Assembly (NCBI GenBank): GCA_964600695.1 | Contig: CAZRKK010000001.1 | Coordinates: forward strand, 63,043-127,042 | Source: an uncultured Candidatus Saccharibacteria bacterium | GTDB taxonomy: Bacteria; Patescibacteriota; Doudnabacteria; UBA920 | DNA: 64,000 nucleotides | Direction: 5' to 3' | Shown: positions 7,591 to 57,771 of the stretch, piece after piece | Position numbering within the stretch: the first letter of the stretch is position 1 | How the letters are laid out: every line of letters begins with the position of its first letter | Notes under the pieces: model-generated | Told to the model about the DNA's origin: nothing | Database searches by the model: none | Seen by the model: the letters and a program-made list of their open reading frames with translations, nothing else | Made by a program: the position numbers and the translations under genes

Positions 7591-8268
7591 ATGATTCAAT
7601 TCAAAAAAGTTACAAAATATTACGGCAACCATAAAGCCTTAAACAACATTAACCTCCAAATCGACCAGGGGGAGTTTATTTCTTTAGTAGGAATGAGTGG
7701 CGCAGGGAAGTCTACTTTAATGAAGTTAATTGTAGGAGAGGAAGAACTAGACGATGGTAGCATCCTAATCGACGACATAGACATGACTCGTATTCGCAAG
7801 AGTGATCTGCCTTATTTACGCAGAAAAATTGGGGTAGTTTTTCAAGATATAAAATTGCTTCCCCGTCGCACAGCTTTCGAGAATGTAGCTTTTGCGATGG
7901 AAGTTTCCGGTCACCGCAAGGAACAAATCAACAAAGATGTCCCTCGCATTTTAGATTTGGTAGGGTTAACTCATAAGAGCAATAATTTTCCTAACGAGAT
8001 GAGCGGTGGAGAAAAGCAACGAGTGGCAATTGCACGAAGCTTAGCTCATCGCCCAGTACTACTTCTTGCAGATGAACCAACTGGTAACTTAGACGAAGTC
8101 AACGCTGCAGAAGTAATCGATTTATTATTGAAGATCAATGAACTAGGCACCACTGTAATTTTAGCTACTCACGCTTCCGACTTAGTAAACAAAATTAAAC
8201 GACGAGTAATTACCATCGAAGGTGGTCAAGTAACCCTAGAACAACAAAAAGGAAAGTATAAACTGTAA
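7591..8268 (+). CDS. ftsE: cell-division ABC transporter ATP-binding protein FtsE
   Basis: Walker A (GMSGAGKST), ABC signature (LSGGEKQRVAIARSL) and Walker B (LLLADEPTGNLD), followed directly by an FtsX-like permease. Confidence 0.9.
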   Translation: MIQFKKVTKYYGNHKALNNINLQIDQGEFISLVGMSGAGKSTLMKLIVGEEELDDGSILIDDIDMTRIRKSDLPYLRRKIGVVFQDIKLLPRRTAFENVAFAMEVSGHRKEQINKDVPRILDLVGLTHKSNNFPNEMSGGEKQRVAIARSLAHRPVLLLADEPTGNLDEVNAAEVIDLLLKINELGTTVILATHASDLVNKIKRRVITIEGGQVTLEQQKGKYKL

Positions 8269-8273
8269 ACTCT

Positions 8274-9191
8274 ATGCGAGGATTAATTTCATTTTTTAGA
8301 ATCGTTAAAAGCGGTACTACTAATTTACGCCGCAACTTATGGCTCGCTGGAGCTTCTACTTTAGTAATGACAGTGACACTGATTATTTTGTCGGTGTTGA
8401 CTTTACTATTCATCATCACCAGCTATTCAGTAGCCTCTATTCAGCAAAGAGTTGATATTAGCGCCTATTTCAAGAGTGATGTTACCGAGGCTAAAGTTCT
8501 AACAATCCGGGATGAAATTAAGCAAGATTCCAGAATCAAAGAGATTAATTACGTTTCTTCAGATCAAGCCCAAGCAGCATTTAAAGAAAAACATAAAGGT
8601 GACCAATTAATAATCGACTCCTTAGGCGAACTTACAGAAAATCCTTTCCCAGCAACTTTGCAAATCAAAGCAACTAATTTGGAAGATTTTCCTGCTATAG
8701 CTGAATCACTCAACAGCGACAAGTACAAGAGTGTAATTCAAGAGGTAAACTTCGAAGACAACAGAGTTATTATCGAAAGACTAAACTCCTTATTAAAATT
8801 TATTATTACCTTTGGTTCGGTTCTAATGGTCGTGTTCTGTTTAATTGCAATTTTGGTAATGTTTAACACGATTGCTCTAACAATTTATAATCGCCGTGAG
8901 GAAGTCGAAATTATGAGACTTGTAGGTGCTACAAACTGGTATATCCGTGGTCCTTTTATTGTCGAAGCCTTCACATATAGTATTATCGCTGCCATTATCA
9001 CCAGCGCCTTACTAATACCGATCTATTTCAACATGCTTCCCAAGATCAGTAACTATCTTACCCCAGGAGCTAATATATTCAACGGTAATGTCACTGTATT
9101 CCTAGGTGTGATTGCTATTCAATTAGGTATCGCCTTTGTACTAAGCACAATCTCAAGCTTATTAGCCATGAGAAAGTACTTACGCATCTAG
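8274..9191 (+). CDS. ftsX: cell-division permease FtsX
   Basis: 305 aa with an N-terminal TM segment, a periplasmic domain, and three C-terminal TM segments (FtsX topology), immediately after ftsE. Confidence 0.85.
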   Translation: MRGLISFFRIVKSGTTNLRRNLWLAGASTLVMTVTLIILSVLTLLFIITSYSVASIQQRVDISAYFKSDVTEAKVLTIRDEIKQDSRIKEINYVSSDQAQAAFKEKHKGDQLIIDSLGELTENPFPATLQIKATNLEDFPAIAESLNSDKYKSVIQEVNFEDNRVIIERLNSLLKFIITFGSVLMVVFCLIAILVMFNTIALTIYNRREEVEIMRLVGATNWYIRGPFIVEAFTYSIIAAIITSALLIPIYFNMLPKISNYLTPGANIFNGNVTVFLGVIAIQLGIAFVLSTISSLLAMRKYLRI

Positions 9192-19834: not shown

Positions 19835-20394
19835 AGCTTCTAATTCCTCCTTAGAATAAACTTATATCTATACTAACTGACTACTATGATCAGTACAAGA
19901 GGCAATAATACTTTTTATATCTAACGAACGTTTATTATGGCATAGGTAAATATTAAGAGAATTATGAATACATATTAAATAGAAAAGAATAGAAAGATAC
20001 AGTAGAGAGTGGCAGGCAGTTAAAGGGAATAGTAAAGAACAATTACAATTAATTTCAAAACATCAAAATATACAAGGGGATATAAGCTTTTGAGATTGAT
20101 ACCGCGTCGCACAATGTATCTTATGCGACATGGTATACCATAGAAACCTTTTGATTGGTCTTAAGTAATGTTTAGATTCCATCCTAGAAAAGAAAAATTT
20201 TAAATTGGATTTCTATATCTACTTATATACAAATCTTTTAATCTGCCGGGCAAATTCTCTACTTTGAACTATTTAATAATTAAGTATTCGCAAACTAATT
20301 CTTATTTAAATGGTTTCTCCTTTATTCTCTATCCCCTAACTTCTATAGTATCCACTTTTTATGATTGACGATCGAAGATATATCCCCTAATATA

Positions 20395-20425
20395 AAACCC
20401 CTTCACAGGATACTCGAAGGGGTTT
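20395..20425 (-). terminator. hairpin AAACCCCTTC...GAAGGGGTTT downstream of gene 20444-21529
   Basis: Perfect 10-bp stem about 20 nt after the stop codon on the minus strand. Confidence 0.5.
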
Positions 20426-20443
20426 AAATATATATTATTAAAT

Positions 20444-21529
20444 TTATTTATAGGTGTTGATGTGTATATGGGCACCGGTTCCGAAAGTGGTGGATTTGGC
20501 GGGACCACATTCCGTTGCCTGGCTAGAAGCTTCATTTAAGAAGCTTGTAATACCAACGGCTTTTAAGGCCTTACAGTAATTATTAAAGTTTTGTACATTT
20601 TTATCAGCAGGACTTATATCAAAACATCTCCCATTAAAATGACATGTGCTTGAATGCATTGATGTTGGAGGATACGCTTCTGTTACTCGTAGTGCTGGCC
20701 CACCATTTTTATCCAAGTAAGCTTTAAGGGCTTTCATTTTTTCAACTACCGAAGGATCGGCATAACTGTTATTCTTGAATGTTGCCCCACTAGACTTCAA
20801 GTCCGCTAAAGGTGGTGAAAATGTACTTGGTGCCGGACAAGCTTTCCCCAAACATTTACCCCCAGGCGGTAATTTTCCTGGATCACCAGTACTTACAGCT
20901 CCACCATTACCAGTACTTACTCCAAACTTACCTGGCTCAATCAAACACTCTTGGCCGAATCCTACCTGTTCGCAACTTGGTAAATCTGCTGCATCAAATA
21001 TCGGTGGTTGAATAGGTTTAAATGCAACCAATGATGGGTTAATAAAATTTAACAAAACATAACTACCGAGCAAGATTGCCATTCCTGTCAGTGAATTTTT
21101 TATATAACCCTTAGCTTTAGTTTTTCCAGATTCGTCTGAGGTTATATAAATGTATCCGGCGTAAATGATTAAGAATACAAGCACCAAAGCTCCTGCTGAT
21201 ATTCCAAATCTATATAGTCGATTAACACACCTTTCTAAATCATGACCATCAGCTGGCTGACTTGGAGTACATAAGTAATCTTGGATACTTCTATCGACCC
21301 CAGCGTTATAGACCGGTAATTCTGTGGGTGTTTGAGCTGGAGGTGTGGTTGTAGCACTATTAGGTTTTGGTGATGTAGTAGCTGGTTTGGTTGCGGGTTC
21401 ATTTACACCAGGAATCGGTAATTGCAATGGTGCACCAATTGGATTTGTTTGAGCGTAAACCAATAATGGACTCGCTGCCAGAGCAACAAAGCCTAAAACA
21501 ACAATAAGTTTTGAAATTTTATTTAGCAA
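20444..21529 (-). CDS. secreted protein: signal peptide + Pro/Thr-rich linker + two-TM pilin-like hairpin + C-terminal LAS/M15-like zinc peptidase domain
   Basis: Signal peptide (MLNKISKLIVVLGFVALAASPLLVYA), then conserved LPVYNAGVDRSIQDYLCTP...RLYRFGISAGALVLVFLIIYAGYIYI...LTGMAILLGSYVLLNFINP. The C-terminal domain carries H-x6-D (HFNGRCFD) and HxH (GAHIH) zinc-ligand motifs. Confidence 0.55.
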   Translation of the reverse strand: MLNKISKLIVVLGFVALAASPLLVYAQTNPIGAPLQLPIPGVNEPATKPATTSPKPNSATTTPPAQTPTELPVYNAGVDRSIQDYLCTPSQPADGHDLERCVNRLYRFGISAGALVLVFLIIYAGYIYITSDESGKTKAKGYIKNSLTGMAILLGSYVLLNFINPSLVAFKPIQPPIFDAADLPSCEQVGFGQECLIEPGKFGVSTGNGGAVSTGDPGKLPPGGKCLGKACPAPSTFSPPLADLKSSGATFKNNSYADPSVVEKMKALKAYLDKNGGPALRVTEAYPPTSMHSSTCHFNGRCFDISPADKNVQNFNNYCKALKAVGITSFLNEASSQATECGPAKSTTFGTGAHIHINTYK

Positions 21530-22256
21530 GTTCGGATTCGATTATTTGTTTAAAACTTTGCCAGTCAAATACCTGATTAATCTTTAGACCATTAATAAAT
21601 ACGGTTGGTGTAGAATCTACACCATACGAAGTTCCACTATTAACAGATTCTTCTATTTGAGCCTTATATATTCTTTGATCAAAACAGTTATCAAAAGCCT
21701 TAGTGTCTAAACCTAAATCTTTGGCAAACTTCTTTAAGTTAATATCACTGAACGCACCGTTATTTTCTTGATTTTGATTTTTGAAAACGTAATCATGATA
21801 ATCCCAAAATTTGTTTTGATCTTTTGAACACAATGCAGCTTCTGCGGCCTTAAATGATTCTTCACCTAAGAAAGGGTAATCCCAGTAAACAAACCTAATC
21901 TTACCTTGGTCAATATATTCTTCCTTTAATTTTGGGAAGATTGTTTTTTGCCATTCGCCACAGTACGGACATTGGAAATCAGCGAATTCAACAATAGTAA
22001 CTTTTGATTCCCTACTCCCCTGTTGCGGTTTATTTTCTGGAATTTGAATATCAACAGGATTATTTACCACAGGATCAACAAGATTAGTATTTTGAGTAAT
22101 ATTTTGTTTTGCAATTTCTCTAGAAATTAACCACCCTGCCCCTAAAATACTCATCGCGATTAACCAAGCAGACAAAAGCGCAGTTAATATCCATGGTGAA
22201 TAGCTTGTAGTCTTAGTGATTTTTATATTTTCCTGCGGGTTAAATTCTTCTGACAT
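21519..22256 (-). CDS. DsbA-family thiol:disulfide oxidoreductase, membrane-anchored
   Basis: An N-terminal TM segment and a thioredoxin fold with active site FQCPYCGEW. Confidence 0.8.
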   Translation of the reverse strand: MSEEFNPQENIKITKTTSYSPWILTALLSAWLIAMSILGAGWLISREIAKQNITQNTNLVDPVVNNPVDIQIPENKPQQGSRESKVTIVEFADFQCPYCGEWQKTIFPKLKEEYIDQGKIRFVYWDYPFLGEESFKAAEAALCSKDQNKFWDYHDYVFKNQNQENNGAFSDINLKKFAKDLGLDTKAFDNCFDQRIYKAQIEESVNSGTSYGVDSTPTVFINGLKINQVFDWQSFKQIIESELAK

Positions 22257-22257
22257 A

Positions 22258-22716
22258 TTATTTACAAAAACTTAATGAAAAAACTTCTCCGGACAGCTTG
22301 GGATCAAAAGAACCACCATTTAATACTTCAACATTTAGATTACATGCTTGTTCTTCGGTCACTCCAAGTAATTTAAGGAACTCTTGCTCTGCCAATGGTT
22401 TCTTTTTAGTAAAATCTTCGAAGGTGGCTTCATTCAAAGTAATAGTAAATTTATTTCCAATCTCGTTGTAAAAGTAAGTAGCTAAATCTGTATCCCTGTT
22501 GATTGTAACCATTCCGGTAGAAGTCTCGACAGGGTTAGCATAAAAATTATTTACAGTTACTTTTGAGCTATCTTTACCATATATAGATATCTCGGTAAGA
22601 TTTTTCCCTGGGGCTGATGGTTCGGATCTAAATGCAAAATAAGCAAGTAATGAAATTATCAGCAAGACCATTAGAGAAACTACGGCAATAATAATTCTTC
22701 TATCTATTTGTTGCAT
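22258..22716 (-). CDS. hypothetical single-TM protein
   Basis: 152 aa with an N-terminal TM (IIIAVVSLMVLLIISLLAYFAF) and a beta-rich extracytoplasmic part. It is tightly packed between DsbA and the pilin-like paralog. Confidence 0.45.
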   Translation of the reverse strand: MQQIDRRIIIAVVSLMVLLIISLLAYFAFRSEPSAPGKNLTEISIYGKDSSKVTVNNFYANPVETSTGMVTINRDTDLATYFYNEIGNKFTITLNEATFEDFTKKKPLAEQEFLKLLGVTEEQACNLNVEVLNGGSFDPKLSGEVFSLSFCK

Positions 22717-23846
22717 GTTTTTGATGTTAATTTGCTTCTAGTTGACCATGGTTGCCAACATTGTTTTTTCCAAGCACTACAAGCCGAATTAATATTTCCT
22801 TCTTTGCTCTTAAGTAAATTTAAGCACTTGTTAAGAGCATCCATACCACTCGGAGCGGTACACTTTCTTTTTGGACAATACTTCATACCATTACTCAGTA
22901 CTTTGATTGGCACCATACAAAATGCAGGATCAGACGCGCCCCCATATGTTAGTACATTTTTACATTCAGGAACACCGTTATCACCTGCTAATGCTGGGGA
23001 CATTTGAAATAAACCCATAGTGATTGGAACCGTGATCTGCGTAGTTGTACCTGTTTTGGAATCAGTAACTTGCCCACAAGGATCAGCTTTCCCTTCAATC
23101 CCTGTATTACCCCCACTTTCTGCCTTACAAATAGTTAATGCCTCGTTTACATTCCAAGAACAACTTTTTAAGTTAGCTTCTGTACATTGTCCGGTTTCAC
23201 CACCACCACCTCCAGCATTATAGACTTGACCGGCACTGCTTCCGCTGGTTATAAGACAGTTTTCAGAAAAACCAATTACTTCACAACTTGGTAAATCGGC
23301 AGCATTAAAAATTGGAGGTTGAATGGTTTTTATTTGAACTAAACTTGGATTGATAAAATTCAACAAGATAAAACTTCCTAACATGATTCCCATGCCAGTA
23401 AATGCAGCGTACAGAGTTTGCTTGGCTTTGGTCTTCGAAGCTTCCCCTCCAGTTATGTAAATATATCCAGCGTAGATTATAAAAAACACGACCATAATCG
23501 CTCCGGCAGAAATTCCAAAGCGATATAATCTATCTACGCAATCATATAAATCTGTGCCTGTGCCAGTTGGAGTACATAAATAATCTTGGATACTTCTATC
23601 TACCCCAGCATTATACACAGGGAGTTCGGTTGGGGCTTGCTTAGTCACATCAATTGCGTCAGGTACCAAAGGCTTTGAGGCTGGAGTCGTAGCTGGTTCA
23701 TTTACACCTGGAATCGGTAATTGCAAAGGCCCACCGATTGGATTAGGCTGGGCTTGGACTTGTGTAGGAGACAGAAAAACAAACAGTTGCATCAAAACCA
23801 CAACACTTAAAAATGCAATCTGAATTTTGTTTGACCAGTTTTTCAT
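22704..23846 (-). CDS. paralog of 20444-21529: signal peptide + two-TM pilin-like hairpin + Cys-rich C-terminal lysozyme/SLT-like domain
   Basis: It shares the LPVYNAGVDRSIQDYLCTP...RLYRFGISAGA...FINPSLV module with the paralog. The C-terminal domain carries ES (ICKAESGGN) and GLFQMSPA motifs and at least 14 Cys. Confidence 0.5.
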   Translation of the reverse strand: MKNWSNKIQIAFLSVVVLMQLFVFLSPTQVQAQPNPIGGPLQLPIPGVNEPATTPASKPLVPDAIDVTKQAPTELPVYNAGVDRSIQDYLCTPTGTGTDLYDCVDRLYRFGISAGAIMVVFFIIYAGYIYITGGEASKTKAKQTLYAAFTGMGIMLGSFILLNFINPSLVQIKTIQPPIFNAADLPSCEVIGFSENCLITSGSSAGQVYNAGGGGGETGQCTEANLKSCSWNVNEALTICKAESGGNTGIEGKADPCGQVTDSKTGTTTQITVPITMGLFQMSPALAGDNGVPECKNVLTYGGASDPAFCMVPIKVLSNGMKYCPKRKCTAPSGMDALNKCLNLLKSKEGNINSACSAWKKQCWQPWSTRSKLTSKTCNK

Positions 23847-23861
23847 TTTTATTTCTAAAAT

Positions 23862-25184
23862 CTAGTTACCCAAAAACGTCATTGGGTTATAAGTATATCC
23901 TGATGGCACAGAATACGAACCATAAACATTTGAATACTTACCGGCAGTCACAGTGTAGCCGTCGCAATCAAAAATACTAAAATGCAAATGATAACCTCTC
24001 TCTGGACCATATAATAAACGAGTAGTATTTCCTGTATTACCTTCGTAACCGATCAAATCCCCTTTTTCTACAGCTGTACCTTTTTTAACTTTAACCGAAC
24101 GCATGTGAGCGTAGAGGCTAACAATACAACGCTTCCCAGACTTGGTTTCGATATTATGTTTAACTGTACACCAGTTGCCGTAAGCCGCTTCGCCTGTGTC
24201 ACAATTTGCCACTGTACCATCTGCTGCTGAGTAAATTGGTTTACCTGCTGGAGCTGCTATGTCGATACCATTATGGGAATTGTAGCCAAGTGACTTAAAG
24301 CCAGTGTTACCATATCCTTGCGTTAACACACCATCCATTGGCCAAGCCAAAACACCTTTACTAACAGAAATAGATTTTTTACCACCCTTTGACTGAGCAG
24401 CAGAATCGAGATCGCTTAGTTCCTCTAAAATTTTGTACTCTTCATTTTTAGTTTGACCCAATAGGTTCTGATAATTTTTTTCTGCGCCTTTAGTTTGTGC
24501 TAGCAATTGCTCTTTAGCACCTCGTTGGCTTTCTAAGGTGTCCTGACTGATATTTAATTGCTCTTTAAGAGATTGGAGTTTTGCTAAAGAGGCCTTTAAA
24601 TCTGCTTGTTGAGTTTCTAATTTCTTTTTAATTTCTTTGATTCGAGTGACTAATGAATAGACTTGATCCTGAACGCTACGCACATACTGAACCTGATCTA
24701 GGAAACTAGAAAAATCATCTGTGCCTAAACCAATTTGCAAAAATGAACTGTTATCCAACTTAGCTAATTGAACAATTAGCTGGGAGAGGATAGTTTTGTT
24801 TTCTTCGATTTCTTCTTGGCGACGTTGAATTTGGATTTCGAGTTCATTGATCTGTAAAGTTGTGTCTTCTGTCTGAGTGTTATTAGCTTCGATTTGCAAC
24901 TCTAAAGACTTTATCTGATTATCATAAATAGAAATTTCATTTTTCAAACTAGCTGCCTGGCTTCGGGTTTGACTGATTTGAGTTTGATAATTATTGATCT
25001 GATTCTTGAGCTGATCTAGCTTTAACTGAAGACGGTCTCGTTCGTTAGCGCTAAAAACTTTTGGCACAGATGGAGCAATAAAAACAGCCGCGACAGAAAT
25101 CGCAACAGTTAAAATAGTCATACCGACTAAAACCAATTTTTTGTTGGTTTTTGTTATTTTTGTTTCGAAGTTGGAGTTACTCAT
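23862..25184 (-). CDS. M23/LytM-family peptidase with N-terminal TM and long coiled-coil (EnvC-like)
   Basis: The C-terminal part carries HNGIDIAAP, LYAHM and GNTGNTTRLLYGPERGYHLHF. Upstream is an approximately 250-aa Q/L/E-rich coiled-coil. Confidence 0.8.
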   Translation of the reverse strand: MSNSNFETKITKTNKKLVLVGMTILTVAISVAAVFIAPSVPKVFSANERDRLQLKLDQLKNQINNYQTQISQTRSQAASLKNEISIYDNQIKSLELQIEANNTQTEDTTLQINELEIQIQRRQEEIEENKTILSQLIVQLAKLDNSSFLQIGLGTDDFSSFLDQVQYVRSVQDQVYSLVTRIKEIKKKLETQQADLKASLAKLQSLKEQLNISQDTLESQRGAKEQLLAQTKGAEKNYQNLLGQTKNEEYKILEELSDLDSAAQSKGGKKSISVSKGVLAWPMDGVLTQGYGNTGFKSLGYNSHNGIDIAAPAGKPIYSAADGTVANCDTGEAAYGNWCTVKHNIETKSGKRCIVSLYAHMRSVKVKKGTAVEKGDLIGYEGNTGNTTRLLYGPERGYHLHFSIFDCDGYTVTAGKYSNVYGSYSVPSGYTYNPMTFLGN

Positions 25185-25247: not shown

Positions 25248-26813
25248 TTATGATAATAAATTTATTGCCTTATTTAAGCGTTTTATAACAGCGTCTTTGC
25301 CGCCATTTAAGCTCAAACAGCTAGCTACCTCGAATGGGCTCGGACTCTTCGCAAGCCCGGTTAAGGCTACACGCATAGGCCAAAGCACATTGCCGGTCTC
25401 GTAGCCCTGTTCGGAAATCCATGCCTTAACTTTCTCTTCCAAAATTGAAGTCGAAGCAAGGTCTGAATCTGGTAGGTTTGATAGAAATTCGACTAGACTA
25501 GAAAGTTTCTGAACAGCATCGGCTTTGTCAGCTTTTTTCCAAATCAGCATTTCTGGAGTGGAATCTTCAGAATCAAACTTTGGCGCATCGACAAAATAAA
25601 AATCTGTATTCTCTGTAATTTGCGAAAGGGTTTTGAGACGTTCTTTTTCGATATTAATCATGGCTAGTAAAAACTCTGATGGGAAACTAGATAACTCTAT
25701 CCCCTGCTCTGCCAAAAACGGTTTTAGCCAAGGCTCAACTAATTGTAAAAGTTCTTGGTTAGATTTTTCTTTAATGTAACTGGCGTTCATCCAGTCTAGT
25801 TTATTCACATCAAAGACAGCACCCGCCTTGTTAACCTTAGCAAGATCAAAGGCCTCGATCAGTCCATCCATAGAAAAAATTTCTTGTTCAGTTTTAGGAT
25901 TCCAACCTAGTAATGCCACAAAGTTAACTAGTGCTTCTGGTAAGTAACCTTTTTGCAAAAAGTCTTCAACAGAAACATCACCTTGACGTTTAGACAATTT
26001 GGTTTTGTCCGGATTCAAAATTAACGGCAAATGAGCAAAAGCAGGTGGTGTCCACCCAAAAGCTTGGTACAACAATAAATGCTTAGGTGTAGATGGAATC
26101 CACTCTTCAGCCCTAATTACATGAGTGATTTCCATATAATGATCGTCAATAACAACAGCTAAATGGTAAGTAGGAAAACCATCCGACTTTAATAAAACTT
26201 GGTCATCTAATAAATTGTGTTCGTATGCAATATCGCCGTAGACTAAATCGTGAATAACAGTTTGTCCTTGATCTGGATTTGCCTGACGGATAACCGCATT
26301 AGGATTTTCTTGTAATTTAGCAGTGACCTCTTCTGCAGAAAGTTTCTTACAATGACGATCGTACATTGGCGGCTTCTTTAAAGCCACTTGCTCTTTGCGA
26401 AGTTCATCTAAACGTTCCTGTGAACAAAAACAATAATAAGCTTTCCCCTGCTCTACTAATTGTTTGGCGTGACTTTGATACATACCCAAACGCTCTGATT
26501 GCACATAAGGACCAACATCGCCCTTAAACTTTATAGTTGCAGAATCAAAATTTACACCGTCATAATTTTCTAAGTAAGCACCTTCATCAAAAGACACTCC
26601 CATTTTAGACATTACAGCTAAGAGATTTTCTACAGCGCCATCTGTTTTACGAGTTTGATCTGTGTCTTCGATTCGCAAAATATTCACACCATTAAAATGC
26701 CGCGCATACAAAAATGCAAACAAGGCGGTGCGAAAATTGCCAACATGAACAAACCCTGTTGGGCTAGGAGCAAAGCGTGTGCGAACTTGTTTATTTTGTG
26801 TGGAGTCTGTCAT
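25248..26813 (-). CDS. gltX: glutamyl-tRNA synthetase
   Basis: RFAPSPTGFVHVGNFRTALFAFLYAR (HIGH-type HVGN), LRIEDTD and TKLSKRQG (KMSKS). Confidence 0.88.
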   Translation of the reverse strand: MTDSTQNKQVRTRFAPSPTGFVHVGNFRTALFAFLYARHFNGVNILRIEDTDQTRKTDGAVENLLAVMSKMGVSFDEGAYLENYDGVNFDSATIKFKGDVGPYVQSERLGMYQSHAKQLVEQGKAYYCFCSQERLDELRKEQVALKKPPMYDRHCKKLSAEEVTAKLQENPNAVIRQANPDQGQTVIHDLVYGDIAYEHNLLDDQVLLKSDGFPTYHLAVVIDDHYMEITHVIRAEEWIPSTPKHLLLYQAFGWTPPAFAHLPLILNPDKTKLSKRQGDVSVEDFLQKGYLPEALVNFVALLGWNPKTEQEIFSMDGLIEAFDLAKVNKAGAVFDVNKLDWMNASYIKEKSNQELLQLVEPWLKPFLAEQGIELSSFPSEFLLAMINIEKERLKTLSQITENTDFYFVDAPKFDSEDSTPEMLIWKKADKADAVQKLSSLVEFLSNLPDSDLASTSILEEKVKAWISEQGYETGNVLWPMRVALTGLAKSPSPFEVASCLSLNGGKDAVIKRLNKAINLLS

Positions 26814-26865: not shown

Positions 26866-28206
26866 TTATGCGTTTTTTTCAAGCGCTTCCGTTAGCTCAG
26901 CGACGACTTTTTTTAGATGATCTTGACGTGGACCAGAAACTACGGATTGAGCTTTATCTAAATCGACCCATTGCCATCGACTAAAAACTTTTGGATCTAA
27001 AATTATTTCTGAATCTTGACCAGTAAATCTAAAAAAGGCTGTTTGTTGCTTTTGACCTCGAAACAATCTTTTAGTACTGAACAAACCTCGAATACCGTTT
27101 GGCCAGTCGAAAGTATTAATATGCTTAGCGGTTCCCAAGTATTGCACTGAAGAAATGTTGACCTCTTCTTTTAATTCTCGCAGCGCAGAAGCTTGTAAAT
27201 CCTCACCAGGTTTAACACCTCCCTGTGGAGGAAGCCATTCACCTTGTGGGTTATATCTTTGCGCATAACCAACCTTAGAAATTTTGTTTGGGTTATTCTC
27301 GCATAATAAAATTTGATTTTGATTGTTGATGACAATAATCGAAACATTATTACGGTAGCCATAACTAGAAAAGACTTTGTACCGTACTAAAGAAAGGATT
27401 AAACCCCAAGTAGCTCGATAAATTCTAGGTAATCGACTAGGTTGTGTTACTAAACGAAACAACCATTCCAACCCAATTGATCGAATCCAAACAGGTGGTG
27501 GAGTCTTAAAACCAGAAGCATAATCAAAAGTCCCTCCGACCCCCATCGCAACTGTAACAGGTAAATTTTTTAAATGATTGGCAATCCATTGCTCTTGCTT
27601 AGGTTGGCCATAAGCTAAAAATAAAAGATCCGGTTTCGCCTGCTGAATATCCTCAAGTAAGGACAAGTTGTTCCAGTTTTTTCTAGACAATCCCACTATC
27701 TGCAATCGAGGATATCTTTCTTTAAGTAACTCTGCAGTTTTTTCTGCAGAATCACTGCGGTGATTTACAAAATAGACAGTCTTGTTATTTTCAGATGCCA
27801 ATTTGATTAAATCAAAAAACACATCTGCTCCAGTAATCTTCTCTGGTATATTTTTATACAAATAACTAGGTGTGAGCAAAATCCGAGCCCCAGAAACTAC
27901 AACATGCGCCCAAGTCTCTATGATCTTGCCCCAAAAACCAGTCGAACGAAGGGGAATGTCTAAGTATCGCTCTGCCCACATTATTGCTATACCATCTGCC
28001 AAAGCAATGTCGGCAGAATTAAATAAATCTCGCAATGAAGACTCAGTCAAACTTGCGTACAAAAACTCCGAATTAGGTGTAGTAATAAAAGTTTGCTGTT
28101 TTGATTCCAGCAAACTTTTGACTTCCGACAAAAATTGAGATTTTGTAATTGCGGAAATATTTAAATTAGCAACTAAAACTTTATGAATCATAAATTTATT
28201 TGTCAC
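26866..28206 (-). CDS. fusion protein: WecB/TagA/CpsF-family glycosyltransferase (N) + NUDIX hydrolase (C)
   Basis: The N-terminal half carries ADGIAIMWA, VGLSRK, LLFLAYGQPKQEQW and GLEWLFRLVTQPSRLPRIYR (PF03808-like). The C-terminal 150 aa carry the Nudix box GGVKPGEDLQASALRELKEEVN. Confidence 0.7.
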   Translation of the reverse strand: MTNKFMIHKVLVANLNISAITKSQFLSEVKSLLESKQQTFITTPNSEFLYASLTESSLRDLFNSADIALADGIAIMWAERYLDIPLRSTGFWGKIIETWAHVVVSGARILLTPSYLYKNIPEKITGADVFFDLIKLASENNKTVYFVNHRSDSAEKTAELLKERYPRLQIVGLSRKNWNNLSLLEDIQQAKPDLLFLAYGQPKQEQWIANHLKNLPVTVAMGVGGTFDYASGFKTPPPVWIRSIGLEWLFRLVTQPSRLPRIYRATWGLILSLVRYKVFSSYGYRNNVSIIVINNQNQILLCENNPNKISKVGYAQRYNPQGEWLPPQGGVKPGEDLQASALRELKEEVNISSVQYLGTAKHINTFDWPNGIRGLFSTKRLFRGQKQQTAFFRFTGQDSEIILDPKVFSRWQWVDLDKAQSVVSGPRQDHLKKVVAELTEALEKNA

Positions 28207-29074
28207 TTTCTAAACATCTATTAAAAGAGTTAACCTGAGAATTATAATCATTAACCAACGCTTTGGTTTTATCTATCAACACATTGAGTGCATCTGCTCG
28301 GCGGTTGTACTCTGCAACTGCATTATCATATTCTTCTCGGGTTCGATACTTATTAGCTTCGATCTGCTTCTTTAACGTAGCTAAAGAGGTTTCTTCTGCT
28401 TGAATACTTAAACGGTTTTGTTCAATTTGAGATTTTATACCTGCACCAGGATTTGGACAGCTAGATGATGGTGTACCAAACTCTTGAACAGCCAGCCAAA
28501 CTTCTTTACCTTCAAACATTCCCTTCCCTACTGCTACGCCAATTTCTTCAAATTTACCATCTAAAATATTAGCGCGGTGACCAGGGCTATTCATCCAGGC
28601 CTCAACCAATACTTGGTCATTTTCGTAATTACCCAAAGCAAGGTTTTCGCCTACAACTAAGTAATCATAGCCAGTGGCTTTAATTACATCTGCAGGATGT
28701 TTACCATCAGGTGATTCATGTTCAAAATACTGCTGACGAAACATATCATCCAGCTTAGCTTTAGCTGCCAAATTCAACTTTGAGTTTGTATGCAAAGGTG
28801 TCTTACTGTATAGCTCGCGCTGTTTATTAGTTTGTTCTACCACCCCAGACAGGGTTAAATTGCTATACCCCTCTAATGGACCACGCAACGGGCCAGACAA
28901 GGACTCTGGCAAGGCGACTTGATCCATAAATCCTTTAAAATTTTGGTCACTTTTCACCCAATTTCCAAAACGTTGAGGTAATCCTTCTAAGATTGCTATC
29001 CCAACAAATACGACTATTAATAAAATTGACCAAAATTTACTCATATATTCACAATTATACCTAGAAATAAGCAA
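28196..29074 (-). CDS. CAP/SCP (YkwD-like) domain secreted protein with C-terminal coiled-coil
   Basis: An N-terminal TM/signal sequence, then CAP motifs GENLALGNY...WMNSPGHRANIL...EIGVAV, then a K/E/Q-rich helical tail. Confidence 0.65.
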   Translation of the reverse strand: MLISRYNCEYMSKFWSILLIVVFVGIAILEGLPQRFGNWVKSDQNFKGFMDQVALPESLSGPLRGPLEGYSNLTLSGVVEQTNKQRELYSKTPLHTNSKLNLAAKAKLDDMFRQQYFEHESPDGKHPADVIKATGYDYLVVGENLALGNYENDQVLVEAWMNSPGHRANILDGKFEEIGVAVGKGMFEGKEVWLAVQEFGTPSSSCPNPGAGIKSQIEQNRLSIQAEETSLATLKKQIEANKYRTREEYDNAVAEYNRRADALNVLIDKTKALVNDYNSQVNSFNRCLESDK

Positions 29075-35788: not shown

Positions 35789-37270
35789 TTATTTTGAAAC
35801 CCATTTTTGTTTCACACCACTTTGAAAATATTTACGGTGCCCATTTTCCCATAAAATAACCTTAGGCTTTACTCGTTTTACCCCAATCATCTTGGTTAGC
35901 TCTCTAAATTCTGAACTAGCGTCTAACAAAGCCTTAATTACATACTGTTCCAATTTAGTTTTAAGAGCTTTGTTATTCTTTTTACCTTTTATTAACTCTA
36001 TGTTAACTTCTAAATATTGATCGTGACGTTTATTGTACTTAGTGAGTAGATTAAATTTCCCAGTAATTTGGCTGAAAAAAATCTTATTCTCTAAAGCCTG
36101 CTTAATAGTTTGAGGGTAAACCTGTAAGCCATAAATTGTAGTGGAAAAATCTGCCCTTTCATAGATATAAACAAAAGGTAGTTCGAAAAGTTTTATACCT
36201 AATCTATTTGCTTCCTTTATCAAGTCTAACCCTAACTCTTTAAATTTATTTTTCACTTCTTCATAATGATAAACACCTCCGTTATCACCGATATCATACC
36301 GAATTAAATTGGTCGAACTATGACCGGAAATTAGTATTCGTTTTTGTTTGATTTCAAAGTTTGTAAAACGTGGATCATATTGAACCAACGTAGGGATTTT
36401 TTTATCTTCAAAGAAACTATCGTGTAAATCTGGGTTACTCAATATCAATTTTCTAATCAAAATAGTGCCGGGATTCTCGAAAGCCATAGCCCCTAACTCA
36501 GCACTACCGTAAATATTCATGGTGTCATAATATGCGCTCTGAATTCCACATTTTTCTACTAAATAATCCCTAAACTTTTCGGTAAAACTTTCTGCAGCAA
36601 AGACCAGCCTTATAGGGATTTTTTTAAGATCTATACCCATTAATTCTGATTCATCGACAATATCCTTTATGAATGGCGGATAGCCACTAAGTATAACGTT
36701 ATCAAACATTGGTGCGAGTTTTTGTAAAGCATTGAATATTTCTTTTTTATTTATCCCTGGAGTAATTATTGTAACGGGATTACCACGCAATGATGCCATG
36801 CGAAAAGCTTGATAAGTAATCAAGCCACCTATCCAAACTCCCATGCCGAAACAATTAATGAGTAAAGTTGATCCTTTTTTCCCATTATTTAAAAAGTTTT
36901 CTGCAATGATTGAGTAGTGGTAATCGACTAACTCATCTCTTAAAAAATATGTCGGTTCAGATGTAGAACCAGAGGTTGAAGTCAGGACAAACCCTTTTTT
37001 CTTCAATTGTTCTTTGGGGAGTATTGATTGAAGGCTATATTTTTTAAAAAAGTCTTTTTTATTGACCTGAGGAACTTCTGAAGAATCAAATTTTTTGGGA
37101 AATTTATATTTTTTCCTTACTAAAAAATCTCGATAGTTCGGTATCGATTTAATTATCTCTAAGAATAATTTTTTTATATTCTCCTTTTGCTGTCTAACCC
37201 AAAAGCCCTGCTTTTTTACTGACCACTCGGCTATAACTTGTTTAGAATCGATAAATTTAGGTGTTGGCAT
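35789..37270 (-). CDS. PaaK/F390-synthetase-like adenylate-forming enzyme
   Basis: LTSTSGSTSEPTYF aligns with the PaaK P-loop SSGTTGKPT. GMGVWIGGL aligns with GYGLFTGGL. RLVFAAESFTEKFRDYLVEKCGIQSAYYDTMNIYGSAELG aligns with the PaaK A8 region. The P-loop Lys is replaced by Glu. Confidence 0.6.
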   Translation of the reverse strand: MPTPKFIDSKQVIAEWSVKKQGFWVRQQKENIKKLFLEIIKSIPNYRDFLVRKKYKFPKKFDSSEVPQVNKKDFFKKYSLQSILPKEQLKKKGFVLTSTSGSTSEPTYFLRDELVDYHYSIIAENFLNNGKKGSTLLINCFGMGVWIGGLITYQAFRMASLRGNPVTIITPGINKKEIFNALQKLAPMFDNVILSGYPPFIKDIVDESELMGIDLKKIPIRLVFAAESFTEKFRDYLVEKCGIQSAYYDTMNIYGSAELGAMAFENPGTILIRKLILSNPDLHDSFFEDKKIPTLVQYDPRFTNFEIKQKRILISGHSSTNLIRYDIGDNGGVYHYEEVKNKFKELGLDLIKEANRLGIKLFELPFVYIYERADFSTTIYGLQVYPQTIKQALENKIFFSQITGKFNLLTKYNKRHDQYLEVNIELIKGKKNNKALKTKLEQYVIKALLDASSEFRELTKMIGVKRVKPKVILWENGHRKYFQSGVKQKWVSK

Positions 37271-49142: not shown

Positions 49143-49748
49143 TTACTCCTCAACCAACCTCGCCTTAACAATATATCTTTTCAAGGCTGTGCCAATTGGG
49201 TAAGAAGTTTGGAGGGTTAAAATGGCCTTGCCGTTAGTTTCTTGGCTCAGTAAATCTGTACGATTCTTTTCGGCCACAAACTTGTCATACACCTTATATG
49301 TATATTTCGTCCCCTCTTTATCAGAAACAATAATAGGAGCACCGATTTCTATTTGAGGAAGTAATGCAAAAACAGTTTTAAAGTTGCCTTTACTAAAAGC
49401 AAAGTCGGAAGAATGACCAAAGATATATGTATTACCTGCCTGCCCTACCTCTGCTGTTCCAGGGAAAAGCACAACTCCATTAACTAAAGCTGTTTGATAA
49501 GCTGTCTCGTTTGCTTCTGTGACAAACTGAATCGGCGCAACTATGTCTAAACTTTCGATAACTAATTGATTTGGTTCGTACTTAATTGGGTTTTCTTTAC
49601 GAAGTTCTTGACGTTGAACCTCTGTAATAAACACCTTACCTAAATGGAACCGAGCTTGCTTAGTAAAGTAAGTGAAGTTTAACAAACCAAACACTAACAA
49701 TCCTAGCACAACAATAATTAATAAATATTTAATAAATTTAATACCCAT
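49143..49748 (-). CDS. sortase-fold protein lacking the catalytic cysteine (TLQTS instead of TLXTC)
   Basis: An N-terminal TM anchor, the conserved His (YIFGHSS) and Arg (RYIVKARL), and a C-terminal ILTLQTSYPIG. The Ser is encoded by TCT (AGA on the plus strand at 49203-49205). The whole protein contains no Cys. Confidence 0.65.
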   Translation of the reverse strand: MGIKFIKYLLIIVVLGLLVFGLLNFTYFTKQARFHLGKVFITEVQRQELRKENPIKYEPNQLVIESLDIVAPIQFVTEANETAYQTALVNGVVLFPGTAEVGQAGNTYIFGHSSDFAFSKGNFKTVFALLPQIEIGAPIIVSDKEGTKYTYKVYDKFVAEKNRTDLLSQETNGKAILTLQTSYPIGTALKRYIVKARLVEE

Positions 49749-49813
49749 ATTTTTAAGATTAGTAACTAAAAACTACCCGCAGGATAACCTTTGGGTAGTT
49801 TTATTATATCACT

Positions 49814-52800
49814 TTAGTTGTTTTGTTTAGCTATGTATTTTGGTAAAAGAATAATACCAAGAGTAGCTAGCATAACCATTACCACATAAGCAGGAGTTCC
49901 TGTTCGAGGTAACTCTGTAGTAGCACCAAGTACAGTTCCTGTTGTTGGGGTACTTGGGATATTTGTACTATCACCAAGGACTCGTCCAACTGTAGGGTTT
50001 GGTACTTCTGGAGCTGGCCCGCCGCCAGTGCTTCCACCACCGCCAGTGCTTCCACCACCGCCGCCTCGATAGATATTCCCAAAGTCTAGACCAGAAGCAT
50101 CACCAGAATAATTTGGATAAACATCAACTGATGCATTGGCTGTTTTAAACATAAAGTCTGTCCAAGAAGAATCTTTATTAGATTCTAGAGTAACTGCTTC
50201 GCAAGGCCAAATTGCACCACCAATAGCAATGTTGTATTCAGTCAAAACAGGTTCTGTCTCTGCCCAATTAGATTGTAAGACTTCTCTAACTGAGTAACAA
50301 CCAGCTACTAAACCAGTAAATTGATAATTCCCGTTGCTATCAGATATAGTTGAGGTTTCTTCGTTATTTAGAGTATTACTTCCATCCTGGTCAAGGTACA
50401 CAACCCAACCTTCAAGCTCATCTTCTACTTCACCATCATGATCACCATTATTGCTGTTATTATCATGATAAACTGTACCGCTTATCTTGAATCCACCATT
50501 ACCACCACCATCTTCATCATCACGGTTATAGAAGTTTTGACCAGTTTCAATTGAATCAGTAACTAATACTTGATTAGCGCCGTTGTCTGCTGGGGTCATT
50601 TGTGTCCAACCTTCTTGACCAACTTCGCGAACGAAATATGTTCCTGTAGGTAAATCTGCAAATGAATAATTACCATCTTTGTCGGTTTTATCATATGGCT
50701 CATTATCATCAAGTTCACCATTTTTATTTAGGTCCAGATAAATTACCCATCCACCTAATGTGATTGGTGTTAACTCTTCATTGCCAGACTGATATTTATA
50801 CTTTGTTCCTGAGATTCCATTTCCACAAGTTGGGAGTTCTGGCTCATCATTAATAATCTGGGTAAAGATACTAAATAATGATTTACGAACTTTTTCCTCT
50901 TGTCGTTGTACACAAACTTGATGGTTACCAAAATCATTATTGATACTATCTGCGTTAGCAGGGACTACATTTAGACTACCTTCTGGAGCACTTTGTTGCC
51001 ATCCAGTTTGCATACCTTCAACAATAGCAAGATTACCGGTTAGATCAGTCACATCAAAACTATAATTACCGTTGGAATCTGTTGTTGTTGAAGATAAGAC
51101 TTCGAAAATTTCTACATCTAGAGTTCCAGTATTATTACCTGGAGCAATATCATTAATTGCGAAATTAACAGCAGCCCCAGTACCAGTTAATGTTTTCCAA
51201 TAAATATGAGAGCTAGTGTATGGACCCCAGTAAGAAGAGTTGCCATCTATTTGCAGGTCCAATAAGTCTGGACCATATATTTCATAATTCTGAACTAAGT
51301 CAGTCCAATCAGGGTTTAAATTTCGAGATGAATATTGAGCATCGGATAGAATTCCATCGTTAGCGTCATAAGTTCCGGAAGCTTTTACTAAATAGGTAGC
51401 GCCATTGGTTAAAGGCAAGCTATCAACACCTGTAACACTAGTTGAATCAACTTCATACTCTGCTACTTTTTTAGTTAAGTAGATAGTCCAATCTTGAATT
51501 CCATTTTCCCCTTGTTCTCTTTCACCGTCACCATCAAGATCATTCCACTTTGTTCCTGTAGCATGATAAGTAGGCTCTCCTTGGCCAGTTTCATCACCAC
51601 AGTAATTAAAGTCTAGGTTGTAAATTAATCCGGTTGGATTGTTGGTTGGTTGGTATGCCCAGTTCTTTACAGCAAATTTTAGAACATGTGTACCTGGTGT
51701 TAGTGCTAATGGAGAGCTATCAGAAACTACGGCATAATCATTGCTAAATCCTACCTGAACTCCATCTAAGAAAGCAGTTACTTCATTGTCAGCGGTAAAA
51801 TGTAAGATTGCAGGAGAAATGCTTGTTGCCCCGGCAGGAATAGTAAAGGTATGGCTATACAGTCTCCATGTATCAATAGAACCATCCCCACCTGCGCCTG
51901 GTGGATTTGTTGGTTGAGCTGCGCTATTGCTGACCCATACCCCGGACCCCTCTGTTATATCTGGATCATTTTGCGGCCCATCCCATGCACCTGGATGACC
52001 AGTAGGACCAGCTAATACAGCTGGAGCATCAATACCTAATGGGTAATTAGCTTCATCACTTAAATCACTCGGTGCTGTATTTTCCTTTAGACCTTCAAAC
52101 TTAGTAAACATACCACTAGCGATAGCTGGGTCTTGCTCCACACAAGGAGTTAGTGACCCAATATTATACGCGATACAGTAGATATGCTCTGGTTGATTAT
52201 TACCTAAGCTAATATACTCTAGATTATCACCATTTAAAGCGTCGTTAAAACATCGAATTGCGGCAAATTCGTAACCATATTTTTCTTGTTCACTCACCCA
52301 CATTTGCCCGTTAACAATTGCTGACTGCATGGCTGGGTTAAGCGCAGAATCTTCTCCAGAAATAGGAGTTACGAATTCACCATCTTCGGTAGCACCTAGA
52401 ACTTGTGCATCATCACTTGTAAAACTACTCTCATTGGAAACGTTAAACTTCCACCCATCGGCACGAACACAATTAGAGTCCTTGCCAGGGATTTCACTTG
52501 GATTTACCAGACCATTCACTAAAGGTGATGGTAAGAACATCCCGTTATTATAGTTATTAAAGTAAACATAATTACCATTGGTTTCATCAGCAGAGCTTCC
52601 AGACTCGTTCCCTGCAACATCACCATATTCTTCACAGACGACTTTGATTAAATGAAGTTTAGGAATCGGTCGATCACAACCATTTTCACTACATTGGTTC
52701 ACGAGTGTAAATGATTCATTTTGAGTATCAACCATTTTAGTTTCATTCTTTCCAGAAATATTGGTCCAGCCATCCTTCATGATTTCATCTAGTTTATATG

Positions 52801-55915: not shown

Positions 55916-57019
55916 TTACTGCTTCTTAGGGTTGATTTTAAGAATCAAACCCAGCACCATCAGGTCCGATGGTGAAGTTTTTACTTTACTGGAGTGCTCA
56001 AGCCTAGCTAGTTTTTTCTCCAGAGAAAGTTCAATGTTAATCAAAACACTTTTAACCATATTGTTTTCTCTGGTCAAAGCCATAGGTTTACGATCTACAA
56101 CCAAAAATTGATTGTCGATTATATATGGACTTAATTCACCAGCGACCTTACTCAATGATAAGAAAATATTTCTATTTGTATTAACACCAGCTTTCGCTAT
56201 CCCAGCACCAGACAATGTCCCGATTATTCGGCAACCCTTGGTTTCGTAAACTCGTTTAGCAATCCTGCCCTTCTGAACATTGAGCCTTTCGAAACCGATA
56301 ATTACATAATGACTGGGATTAACATACCGATCTATAAAATCAACCAACTTTCCCCATTGATACAGATCGAGAATACTTCCTAACTCTCGGAATATACCCG
56401 TAGGTGCATTACGAACCAAATCACCAGCTAAATAACTAAGCTCATTTGGTCTTAGCCGGCCGGGTTTTTTGGACGATCCAGATAATCTGATACTAAGGAG
56501 GTCCAAAGATTTAACTCCGTACAAGTTTGAAGCAAAAACATCATTATTGGTTGATCGATTATATATCTCGACACCAGCAGAAGCTATGTACTTCATCAAA
56601 TTGGTATTGATCTCAGCCAGCTTCTCCACTCCATGACCGCGAAACTCGGAAGATTTTTGTAGGCGTTCAACCTCAGCACGTAAGCCTTGATTGATACCTT
56701 TTAACTTCTGCACCTCTTCCGAATCGGCCCTCTTTTGAATATTGCGTTCCTGACGGAACTCATTTAGAGCTTCTTTGAATTGCTCCACGTCCTTAATAGC
56801 CGTGTGCGCAGCATTAAAGTGTTGAGAAATATCTTTCCTTTCGGTTCGATCTTCGTGCTTTATTGCGGCCAAAGTCTGAGCCGTTCTTAATGCCAACTTA
56901 TGATATTCATCCTCGGTTAGCTTAAGTTTTAAGATGGAGTAATCCCACCCAATTACCTCTAAAGGATTTTTGGATACAATTACTCCGTCCGAATTTTGCA
57001 ACGCTGTTACAGTGGTCAT
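55916..57019 (-). CDS. hypothetical protein (N-terminal coiled-coil + C-terminal globular domain), second gene of orphan two-gene operon
   Basis: 367-aa ORF with no recognisable catalytic motif. Its start overlaps the upstream ORF's stop by 4 nt. Confidence 0.5.
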   Translation of the reverse strand: MTTVTALQNSDGVIVSKNPLEVIGWDYSILKLKLTEDEYHKLALRTAQTLAAIKHEDRTERKDISQHFNAAHTAIKDVEQFKEALNEFRQERNIQKRADSEEVQKLKGINQGLRAEVERLQKSSEFRGHGVEKLAEINTNLMKYIASAGVEIYNRSTNNDVFASNLYGVKSLDLLSIRLSGSSKKPGRLRPNELSYLAGDLVRNAPTGIFRELGSILDLYQWGKLVDFIDRYVNPSHYVIIGFERLNVQKGRIAKRVYETKGCRIIGTLSGAGIAKAGVNTNRNIFLSLSKVAGELSPYIIDNQFLVVDRKPMALTRENNMVKSVLINIELSLEKKLARLEHSSKVKTSPSDLMVLGLILKINPKKQ

Positions 57020-57681: not shown

Positions 57682-57771
57682 ATTTCCCTCTTCTTCAGTT
57701 GTAATAGAACAAAGCAAAGAATAACACGTTTTCTGTTTTCTGTCAACCAAATATCCATATAAACATTGGTC

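Follow-up and report, generated by a model that had tools for sequence, protein, structure and literature searches.

Predicted peptidoglycan hydrolases fused to a VirB2-like pilin hairpin in a conserved operon of a Patescibacteria clade

Patescibacteria, which are ultra-small, account for a considerable part of bacterial diversity and live attached to other cells; to our knowledge, VirB2-like "pilins" and a type IV secretion system (T4SS) are essential in the sole genetically tractable species of this group, and we know of no function for either of them. Short VirB2-like pilins, often arrayed, are located near VirB4 in many Patescibacteria (PMC12102498), and most genomes of the candidate phyla radiation (CPR) that carry VirB2-like genes lack VirB1 (PMC12102498; Quinonero-Coronel et al. 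2025). In the T4SS locus of Southlakia, which is reported to be essential, a lysozyme-like/cysteine-protease protein and a protein that ends in a Hedgehog/DD-peptidase domain are encoded together with VirB4, PrgI, VirB6 and six pilins of the Pfam family PF18895 (PMC10633639, Table S2; Wang et al. 2023). Here, we have analysed a five-gene unit, located at positions 20444-25184 of a 64,000-nucleotide stretch of DNA (hereafter, the window), where the same three building blocks, which are separate proteins in the Southlakia locus, are fused: two of the genes encode proteins, to which we refer as hydrolase A and hydrolase B, in which a divergent VirB2-like hairpin appears to carry one of two different peptidoglycan-hydrolase heads. 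Members of the VirB2-like pilin family have not been described as carriers of peptidoglycan hydrolases in the literature that we have searched, and both the architecture and the conserved operon are well supported; a first-pass annotation of the same DNA had likewise regarded the architecture as not commonly described, but the family is nonetheless large (1,746 clusters of 50% identity at E<=1e-10). The fusion of a pilin hairpin with peptidoglycan hydrolases is a clue of the Rosetta-stone type, tying pilin-like proteins to wall cutting.

The VirB1-type hydrolases of monoderm T4SSs (PrgK of pCF10, TraG of pIP501 and CwlT of ICEBs1) are membrane-anchored as well, open the wall locally and have a head repertoire (SLT, M23 and CHAP/NlpC-P60 types) that recurs in the family described here; they are, however, held by a plain single transmembrane (TM) helix or a lipobox, stack several heads on one protein and are encoded within a T4SS operon, whereas here one pilin-like hairpin is present per head, the proteins usually have one head, and no T4SS genes are located nearby. 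The five genes, which have been found where the first-pass annotation had placed them, and the parts of the two hydrolases are as follows (aa, amino acids):

23862-25184, minus strand: M23 coiled-coil metallopeptidase (M23cc), 440 aa, first gene of the unit
22704-23846, minus strand: hydrolase B, 380 aa
23751-23846, minus strand: signal peptide of hydrolase B
23631-23750, minus strand: Pro/Thr linker of hydrolase B
23232-23630, minus strand: pilin-like hairpin module of hydrolase B
22707-23195, minus strand: Cys-rich, lysozyme/lytic-transglycosylase-like head of hydrolase B
22258-22716, minus strand: small single-pass membrane protein, 152 aa
21519-22256, minus strand: membrane DsbA-like thiol:disulfide oxidoreductase, 245 aa
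20444-21529, minus strand: hydrolase A, 361 aa
21452-21529, minus strand: signal peptide of hydrolase A
21332-21451, minus strand: Pro/Thr linker of hydrolase A
20930-21331, minus strand: pilin-like hairpin module of hydrolase A
20810-20929, minus strand: Gly/Pro linker of hydrolase A
20447-20809, minus strand: predicted LAS (Hedgehog/DD-peptidase-like) zinc hydrolase head of hydrolase A

The comparison of hydrolases A and B has revealed that their first ~192 residues are 65% identical (BLASTP E 7e-83), a similarity far beyond chance, while their C-termini are unrelated. The parts of the shared module are always arranged in the same way. A signal peptide, whose A-Q cleavage context is nearly invariant, precedes a variable Pro/Thr linker and a short helix flanked by two conserved cysteines; then come the first helix (TM1), with AGYxY at its end, the invariant E..K...K loop, the second helix (TM2), with FINP at its end, the motif IQPPIF, a C-x8-C loop and a Gly-rich linker. 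The motifs that had been quoted for this region (ELPVYNAGVDRSIQDYLCTP, RLYRFGISAGA, two hydrophobic helices, INPSLV) are all present, as are those quoted elsewhere in the unit (H-x6-D and HIH in A, ES and GLFQ in B, CPYC in DsbA). By hydropathy, the two helices are located at about residues 104-130 and 145-168 (104-132 and 150-170 in A), and in the predicted models they appear as H97-130 and H133-163. Because a signal peptide precedes them and the loop between them is rich in lysine, hydropathy and the positive-inside rule imply an N-out/C-out hairpin, which would place the catalytic head outside.

This predicted topology bears on the comparison with class II holins that the first-pass annotation had offered next to that with pilins. 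A phage-type lysis cassette, in which a class II holin is fused to an endolysin, resembles the present proteins only superficially, in having two TM helices ahead of a muralytic domain; class II holins are N-in/C-in and have no signal peptide, the opposite of the cleavable signal peptide and N-out/C-out arrangement seen here, no holin match has been found in Pfam or PHROGs, the search for phage, plasmid or PHROG relatives (50,697 phage records) has returned none, and the locus is situated in a conserved core-genome context that contains no phage genes. We have rejected the holin on these grounds, and a lysis cassette is extremely improbable.

The likeness to pilins, on the other hand, has held up. 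The PF18895 (T4SS_pilin) model scores 22.1 bits against A and 13.1 bits against B, both under the Pfam gathering score of 26.6, and both proteins weakly match the NCBIfams for "pilin-like conjugal transfer" proteins of Mycoplasma integrative and conjugative elements. When a profile of the module was run on 1.84 billion representatives of 50%-identity clusters, 28,623 proteins were matched at E<=1e-3, among them the 1,746 already mentioned at E<=1e-10, with 124 reaching E<=1e-30; of 108 new top representatives, 78 match PF18895 at E<=1e-3 and six match TrbC. The same profile recovers genuine short pilins in an array (locus L027), including a 116-aa protein at 8e-16 that itself passes the PF18895 and TrbC models. 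Taken together, the sub-threshold scores of A and B, the PF18895 and TrbC matches of their relatives and the recovery of short pilins place the module, as far as can be judged from sequence, in the Patescibacteria VirB2-like pilin family PF18895, as a divergent and extended subfamily. Among the 150 best representatives, a length of more than 280 aa is nearly universal, compared with ~100-150 aa for a typical stand-alone pilin. The signal peptide, the two hydrophobic helices, the short basic loop and the occurrence of paralogues side by side, as in A and B, are shared with the Patescibacteria VirB2/TrbC-like pilins (PF18895), to which the relatedness is at the family level of hidden Markov models; unlike those pilins, the hairpin forms the first third of an enzyme of 300-600 aa (361 aa in A, 380 aa in B), has additional conserved elements (a helix with a Cys pair before TM1, and IQPPIF with a C..C loop after TM2) and is encoded in a gltX-M23 operon without T4SS genes.

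The membership of the module in the PF18895/TrbC superfamily is the first point in favour of an alternative that we regard as possible, if unlikely: the hairpin would still be a VirB2-type pilin that is extracted by a Patescibacteria T4SS, and it would serve as a minor or tip subunit with its head displayed on the pilus, or else as a carrier from which the head is removed by cleavage after IQPPIF/C..C; the target of the head would be the own wall, opened for pilus growth (a built-in VirB1), or the host wall, breached at the epibiotic contact. The structures of the F- and T-pilus have shown how VirB2-type pili are packed, and a head of 17-40 kDa on every subunit would not fit that packing, so that only the minor-subunit role or the cleavage would be workable. 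The degree of conservation also speaks against this alternative: the fused module shows ~60% identity, compared with a mean of 25% for the hypervariable surface pilin arrays of CPR bacteria (array figure from PMC12102498), and such conservation is more in keeping with a conserved partner in the membrane than with a filament exposed to the host. The medians of module identity are 64.7% for paralogues of the same genome, 54.7% for cross-slot pairs between genomes and ~60% for same-slot pairs between genomes; the greater likeness within a genome (64.7% versus 54.7%) would be expected of co-assembling subunits, but it is also explicable by gene conversion, considering that A and B have a nucleotide identity of 83-87% in two 20-codon patches. 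Between A and B, most synonymous sites differ, and the same codon is used at only 48% of the identical residues, so that we reject the idea that recent gene conversion alone has produced the similarity; the codon pattern points to purifying selection with some local gene conversion.

Two further observations point to gene conversion between paralogues at a local scale. In the window, positions 21386-21445 and 23679-23738 of A and B share an otherwise rare linker (NPIGxPLQLPIPGVNEPAT) at 83% nucleotide identity, and in locus L030 (8778-11593) the modules of two paralogues are 84% identical.

The family has been found to be modular. In all 164 homologues recovered with A and B, the module is located at the N-terminus and is followed by 130-450 residues. 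When the C-termini are classed after trimming the shared linker that follows the module, the classes, whose counts are biased toward the queries A and B, are A-type LAS heads (65), B-type heads (28), M23+M15 or C39-like heads (22), two classes of SLT heads (18 and 4), GDSL (9), CHAP (7), M15_4 (6), Amidase_2 (2) and two unknown classes (2 and 2), i.e. at least ten head types on one module; an unbiased representative set has revealed the same diversity, as well as forms with tandem hairpins. Two proteins are 86% identical to A or B over their first 224-245 residues and yet carry another head, C39-like in P0003 and SLT in P0009, with the similarity stopping in the Gly-rich linker. The end of the likeness at this point is what leads us to read the heads, from these alignments, as exchanged by recombination at the linker. 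The family offers expressible candidate enzymes with predicted catalytic residues and disulfide maps.

In loci L031 (1361-3217), L033 (1777-3435), L032 (4608-10463) and L035 (589-2427), single polypeptides of three to six tandem pilin hairpins are encoded, some of which end in an SLT domain, and one set of which adjoins VirB4 on its downstream side, next to the genes of the replication origin; the covalent joining suggests that the "pilin" hairpins pack side by side.

The constant N-terminal module, the at least ten unrelated heads and the recombination breakpoints in the linker are what would be expected of polymorphic antibacterial effectors, where the N-module would act as the trafficking or anchoring domain of interchangeable wall-degrading toxins directed against competitors or hosts, and the small membrane protein would confer immunity to the glycosidase head. 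We consider this explanation quite improbable, considering that no secretion system is linked to the locus and that a two-TM tether should keep the head at the surface of the producer; the evidence from the small protein and from the gene order is weighed below.

The head of A is the better defined of the two. The first-pass annotation had described zinc ligands of the LAS/M15 type, and the two motifs, HFNGRCFD (H-x6-D, at residue 297) and HIH (at residue 354), have been located in a protein with 10 cysteines; in an alignment of 44 sequences, the predicted zinc ligands H297, D304 and H356, the candidate catalytic acid E333 and three Cys pairs are invariant. The model built from this alignment (pLDDT, predicted local distance difference test, 75-95) finds Hedgehog-N as the best PDB match in Foldseek (E 5.6e-4, probability 1.0, template-modelling score 0.55), followed by VanY and MepA; H297 and D304 align with the zinc motif of Shh. 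On this modelled fold and the invariant H297, D304 and H356, we assign the head to the LAS-fold (Hedgehog/DD-peptidase) zinc hydrolases, in agreement with the earlier description. The fold and the H-x6-D ... H zinc triad are those of the known LAS hydrolases (VanY, VanX, MepA, the M15 endolysins and SEML1_0007 of Southlakia); unlike them, the head of A has three conserved disulfide pairs and is sub-threshold for the Pfam M15 models, none of which matches above its threshold (Peptidase_M15_3 reaches 13.5 bits against a threshold of 23.2, and HH_signal matches weakly as well), and its fold is nearer to Hedgehog-N than to VanY. When the alignment of LAS heads served as the profile for a search, one protein was returned, compared with more than 60 family members from the full-length query.

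The head of B is less certain. The lytic-transglycosylase-like motifs and the richness in cysteine that the first-pass annotation had noted are indeed present: ES (residue 243) and GLFQ (residue 278) occur in a protein with 16 cysteines, B-type heads hold 10-12 cysteines, and E243, G278 and Q281 are invariant in 28 sequences. The match to a known family is what has failed to appear, since neither Pfam nor the PDB, searched by sequence or profile, has returned a match, the best Foldseek hit is not significant (E 0.76), the hhalign comparison with the second class of SLT heads (SLT2) covers no more than 47 columns (E 0.0075), and no counterpart of the third SLT motif (AYNxG) is recognised. We read this head as a Cys-rich glycosidase of the lysozyme/lytic-transglycosylase type, less certainly than we assign the head of A; from the family 1 lytic transglycosylases and the goose-type lysozyme fold (Slt70, MltC, MltE, EtgA) it differs by the absence of an SLT-model or PDB match and by its 10-12 cysteines.

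The supply of disulfide bonds by a gene in cis, as had been proposed from the presence of a DsbA gene, has gained support from co-variation. The DsbA-like protein (Thioredoxin_4 1.8e-39 and DSBA 1.1e-14 in Pfam) has a TM helix at residues 20-45 and CPYC at residue 96, and its sequence thus appears to combine the thioredoxin fold, the CxxC motif and the extracytoplasmic location of DsbA-type enzymes. Its gene is present in 11 of 11 loci where the first hydrolase after M23cc (slot 1) has a Cys-rich head (10-12 cysteines in B heads, 8-10 in SLT2 heads), and absent in nine of nine loci where slot 1 holds a head of the first SLT class (SLT1) with two cysteines; in a quick tree of M23cc, the two states are interleaved, which corresponds to at least 2-3 independent switches. 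All five products of the unit have an N-terminal hydrophobic segment by hydropathy and an even number of cysteines outside the cytoplasm (10 in A, 16 in B, four in the M23 protein, two in the small protein, and CPYC plus two in DsbA).

The small membrane protein has one hydrophobic helix (residues 3-33) and an extracytoplasmic domain with an invariant Cys pair (C125, C151). Its family accompanies the B-type and SLT2-type heads, an unrelated family of small TM proteins accompanies the SLT1 heads, and no small protein follows the amidase_2 heads; searches of Pfam, the PDB and PHROGs, known lysozyme inhibitors included, have placed the family of the window in no known family, and the SLT1-associated family likewise matches nothing known. 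The protein is a candidate head-specific partner of the glycosidase head, whether as an inhibitor, a chaperone or a regulator. The switch between two unrelated small proteins with the type of glycosidase head, and their absence with amidase heads, is also what an immunity gene would show, and polymorphic toxin systems have the same constant N-module, linker-swapped heads and small head-specific downstream gene. They differ in that the genes described here occupy a fixed, single-copy slot in a housekeeping operon, with no secretion-system link, no variable-copy cassette arrays and only wall-active heads; moreover, neither orphan heads nor immunity cassettes are located downstream, the peptidase heads have no partner gene behind them (after A comes the terminator-like hairpin), and the small protein belongs to no known inhibitor family.

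The M23 protein is anchored by an N-terminal TM segment (~15-46), which is followed by an extended coiled coil (~47-265) and, at residues 303-405, by the M23 domain (PF01551 Peptidase_M23, 6.6e-23), with weak matches to PcsB coiled-coil and SMC-type models. It had been called EnvC-like, and the coiled coil and the M23 domain are indeed present; the sense of a degenerate activator, however, does not apply, because both zinc motifs, HNGID (304) and HLH (399), are intact, which makes an active enzyme of the LytM type with a coiled coil likelier, on sequence, than a degenerate EnvC. The same three-part arrangement, with a C-terminal hydrolase domain, is found in EnvC, PcsB, CwlO and RipC, which are controlled by FtsEX, and ftsE and ftsX are located in the window, as they are in the same neighbourhood in loci L029 and L034; FtsEX may thus be a regulator of the M23 protein. 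In deep relatives, M23cc directly adjoins a protein with an amidase head, recalling the EnvC-amidase pair; unlike in the EnvC case, the zinc motifs are intact and the partner hydrolases are fusions with a membrane hairpin. The remaining features to which we refer are the following:

20389-20422, minus strand: intrinsic-terminator-like hairpin read from sequence, CCCCTTC (20422-20416), an 11-nucleotide loop and GAAGGGG (20404-20398), then TTTTATATT
25248-26813, minus strand: gltX, by Pfam; regarded as upstream context rather than as a component of the unit
26866-28206, minus strand: WecG/TagA-NUDIX fusion, by Pfam; upstream context, likewise
28196-29074, minus strand: CAP-domain secreted protein, by Pfam; upstream context, likewise
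7591-8268, plus strand: FtsE (ABC_tran 3.6e-37 in Pfam)
8274-9191, plus strand: FtsX (FtsX_ECD and FtsX in Pfam)

The genes of the unit are separated by gaps of 15 and 1 bp and overlaps of 13 and 11 bp, and a G+C-rich stem-loop with a T-run is located directly 3' of the stop codon of hydrolase A; the tight spacing and this terminator-like hairpin make the five genes look like the end of one transcription unit. The terminator scan overlooks the hairpin at 20422-20389, whose loop of 11 nucleotides exceeds the limit of eight. The hairpin opens an AT-rich stretch of 610 bp without an open reading frame (19835-20443) that is located downstream of the operon, and a scan of the whole window against Rfam has returned zero family matches.

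The order gltX - M23cc - module-hydrolase(s) has been found in 22 loci from different genomes; the fuller arrangement, which recurs in different species, is CAP - WecG/NUDIX - gltX - M23cc - module-hydrolase 1 - small TM protein - [DsbA] - module-hydrolase 2 - [module-hydrolase 3], the genes in brackets being optional. The slots differ in the kind of head: slot 1 is occupied by a glycosidase (B, SLT1 or SLT2) or an amidase, the later ones by peptidases or an esterase. In members at a far greater distance, what remains is the core gltX - M23cc - module-hydrolase; the head is then of the amidase_2 or A type, and neither the small protein nor DsbA is encoded, so that the minimal unit in deep relatives is M23cc with one module-hydrolase. 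The WecG/TagA-NUDIX and CAP genes sit just upstream of gltX in all related loci; in locus L005 (1906-6263), gltX and the M23 gene, adjacent in the other loci, are separated by an insertion of ~4.3 kb.

Co-conservation with T4SS or type IV pilus genes, which the first-pass annotation had envisaged, has not been found: no such genes are located within 10 kb of the 22 syntenic loci, and neither a T4SS gene nor a stand-alone pilin is located in the 64-kb window, all of which speaks against an extraction of the hairpin by a T4SS. More distant relatives of the module speak for it. In locus L032, three large T4SS_pilin proteins directly follow PrgI - TraC-like - VirB4 and precede jag - yidC - rnpA - dnaA, and at the same position in locus L031 a T4SS_pilin + NlpC/P60 fusion and a 4x T4SS_pilin + SLT fusion are encoded, with scores that exceed the Pfam thresholds; for the long T4SS_pilin proteins of L032, the PDB has returned no match. 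With such relatives in T4SS loci, the fusion design is broader than the subfamily of the window and, judging by these sequences, has probably arisen in a T4SS setting that this subfamily has left. The union of a lysozyme-like protein, a Hedgehog/DD-peptidase and six pilins, all reported to be essential, in the Southlakia T4SS locus (PMC10633639), and the lack of VirB1 in most CPR genomes with VirB2-like genes (PMC12102498), also favour a link with a T4SS; a gltX-M23 operon of the present type has not been found in Southlakia. If the hairpin is indeed a T4SS-extracted pilin, the fusions would explain how epibionts breach the wall of their hosts.

A related proposal, which we consider rather unlikely, is that A and B are enzyme-tipped or enzyme-releasing pilin subunits of the Patescibacteria T4SS apparatus that bring glycan- and peptide-cutting blades into the host wall. 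Should it be correct, the "pilin arrays" of CPR bacteria would be part of a wall-breaching device rather than of a conjugative pilus, and the system that epibionts need for life on their hosts would carry glycan- and peptide-cutting blades of its own.

The explanation that we favour, with middling confidence, is that the unit is a chromosomal operon for the cell envelope, conserved in one clade of Patescibacteria, and encodes a membrane-tethered, disulfide-matured set of autolysins that acts on the cell's own wall together with the M23 coiled-coil enzyme, possibly under FtsEX. It is favoured because a strict housekeeping synteny is kept over deep divergence, the labour is divided by slot, the tether is short and the conservation of the module is opposite to that of exposed pilins. 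In this mechanism, a Sec-type signal peptide would export each hydrolase, and the VirB2/TrbC-type hairpin would anchor it in the membrane in an N-out/C-out arrangement, the invariant E..K...K loop facing the cytoplasm and a flexible Gly/Pro linker presenting the exchangeable catalytic head on the outer face. There, the head of B would cut glycan strands by its putative lysozyme/lytic-transglycosylase fold and Glu243, and the head of A would cut peptide stems or cross-links at its predicted LAS zinc site (H297/D304/H356). Disulfides, i.e. two per module, three in the head of A and about six in the head of B, would be introduced by the membrane DsbA of the unit, and the small single-pass protein would be the head-specific partner of the glycosidase. 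The job of the set would be to cut the own wall, for separation, turnover or the insertion of envelope machines, with the upstream M23cc, an enzyme of a kind controlled by FtsEX.

Several observations weigh against the action of such a set on the own wall. The pilins to which the module is homologous are pulled out of the membrane by a T4SS, and the strict conservation of AGY.Y, E..K...K, FINP and IQPPIF exceeds the needs of a passive anchor. Distant relatives of the same design (T4SS_pilin + SLT, T4SS_pilin + NlpC/P60) are located in or beside T4SS loci, and the essential Southlakia locus has separate lysozyme-like and Hedgehog/DD-peptidase proteins beside its six PF18895 pilins (PMC10633639). 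The swapping of heads between 86%-identical modules, together with the head-specific small downstream gene, resembles effector/immunity logic. Lastly, ftsEX is located 12 kb away on the opposite strand, and the active site of the M23 protein is intact, unlike that of EnvC. If the set does act on the own wall, it would show how autolysins are organised in a clade with genomes of ~1 Mb, i.e. on a common carrier with plug-in heads and with DsbA only for the Cys-rich head, and it would warn against taking every PF18895 match as a pilus subunit.

The window as a whole is a low-GC (~38%) piece of chromosome that contains ribosomal proteins, gltX, ftsEX and similar genes, and its closest public relatives are metagenome-assembled genomes labelled Candidatus Saccharibacteria, Candidatus Doudnabacteria or Patescibacteria group. 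Apart from the unit, in the region 49143-55702 (minus strand), a surface protein of 1962 aa with SpaA, SdrD-B and prealbumin-like repeats adjoins a sortase gene (49143-49748) and is probably a giant sortase-dependent adhesin or pilus subunit. At 35789-37270 and 55916-57750, both on the minus strand, proteins of 493, 367 and 244 aa without a Pfam family are encoded; the 493-aa protein clusters with ThiF-like and Glu/Leu-dehydrogenase-like genes.

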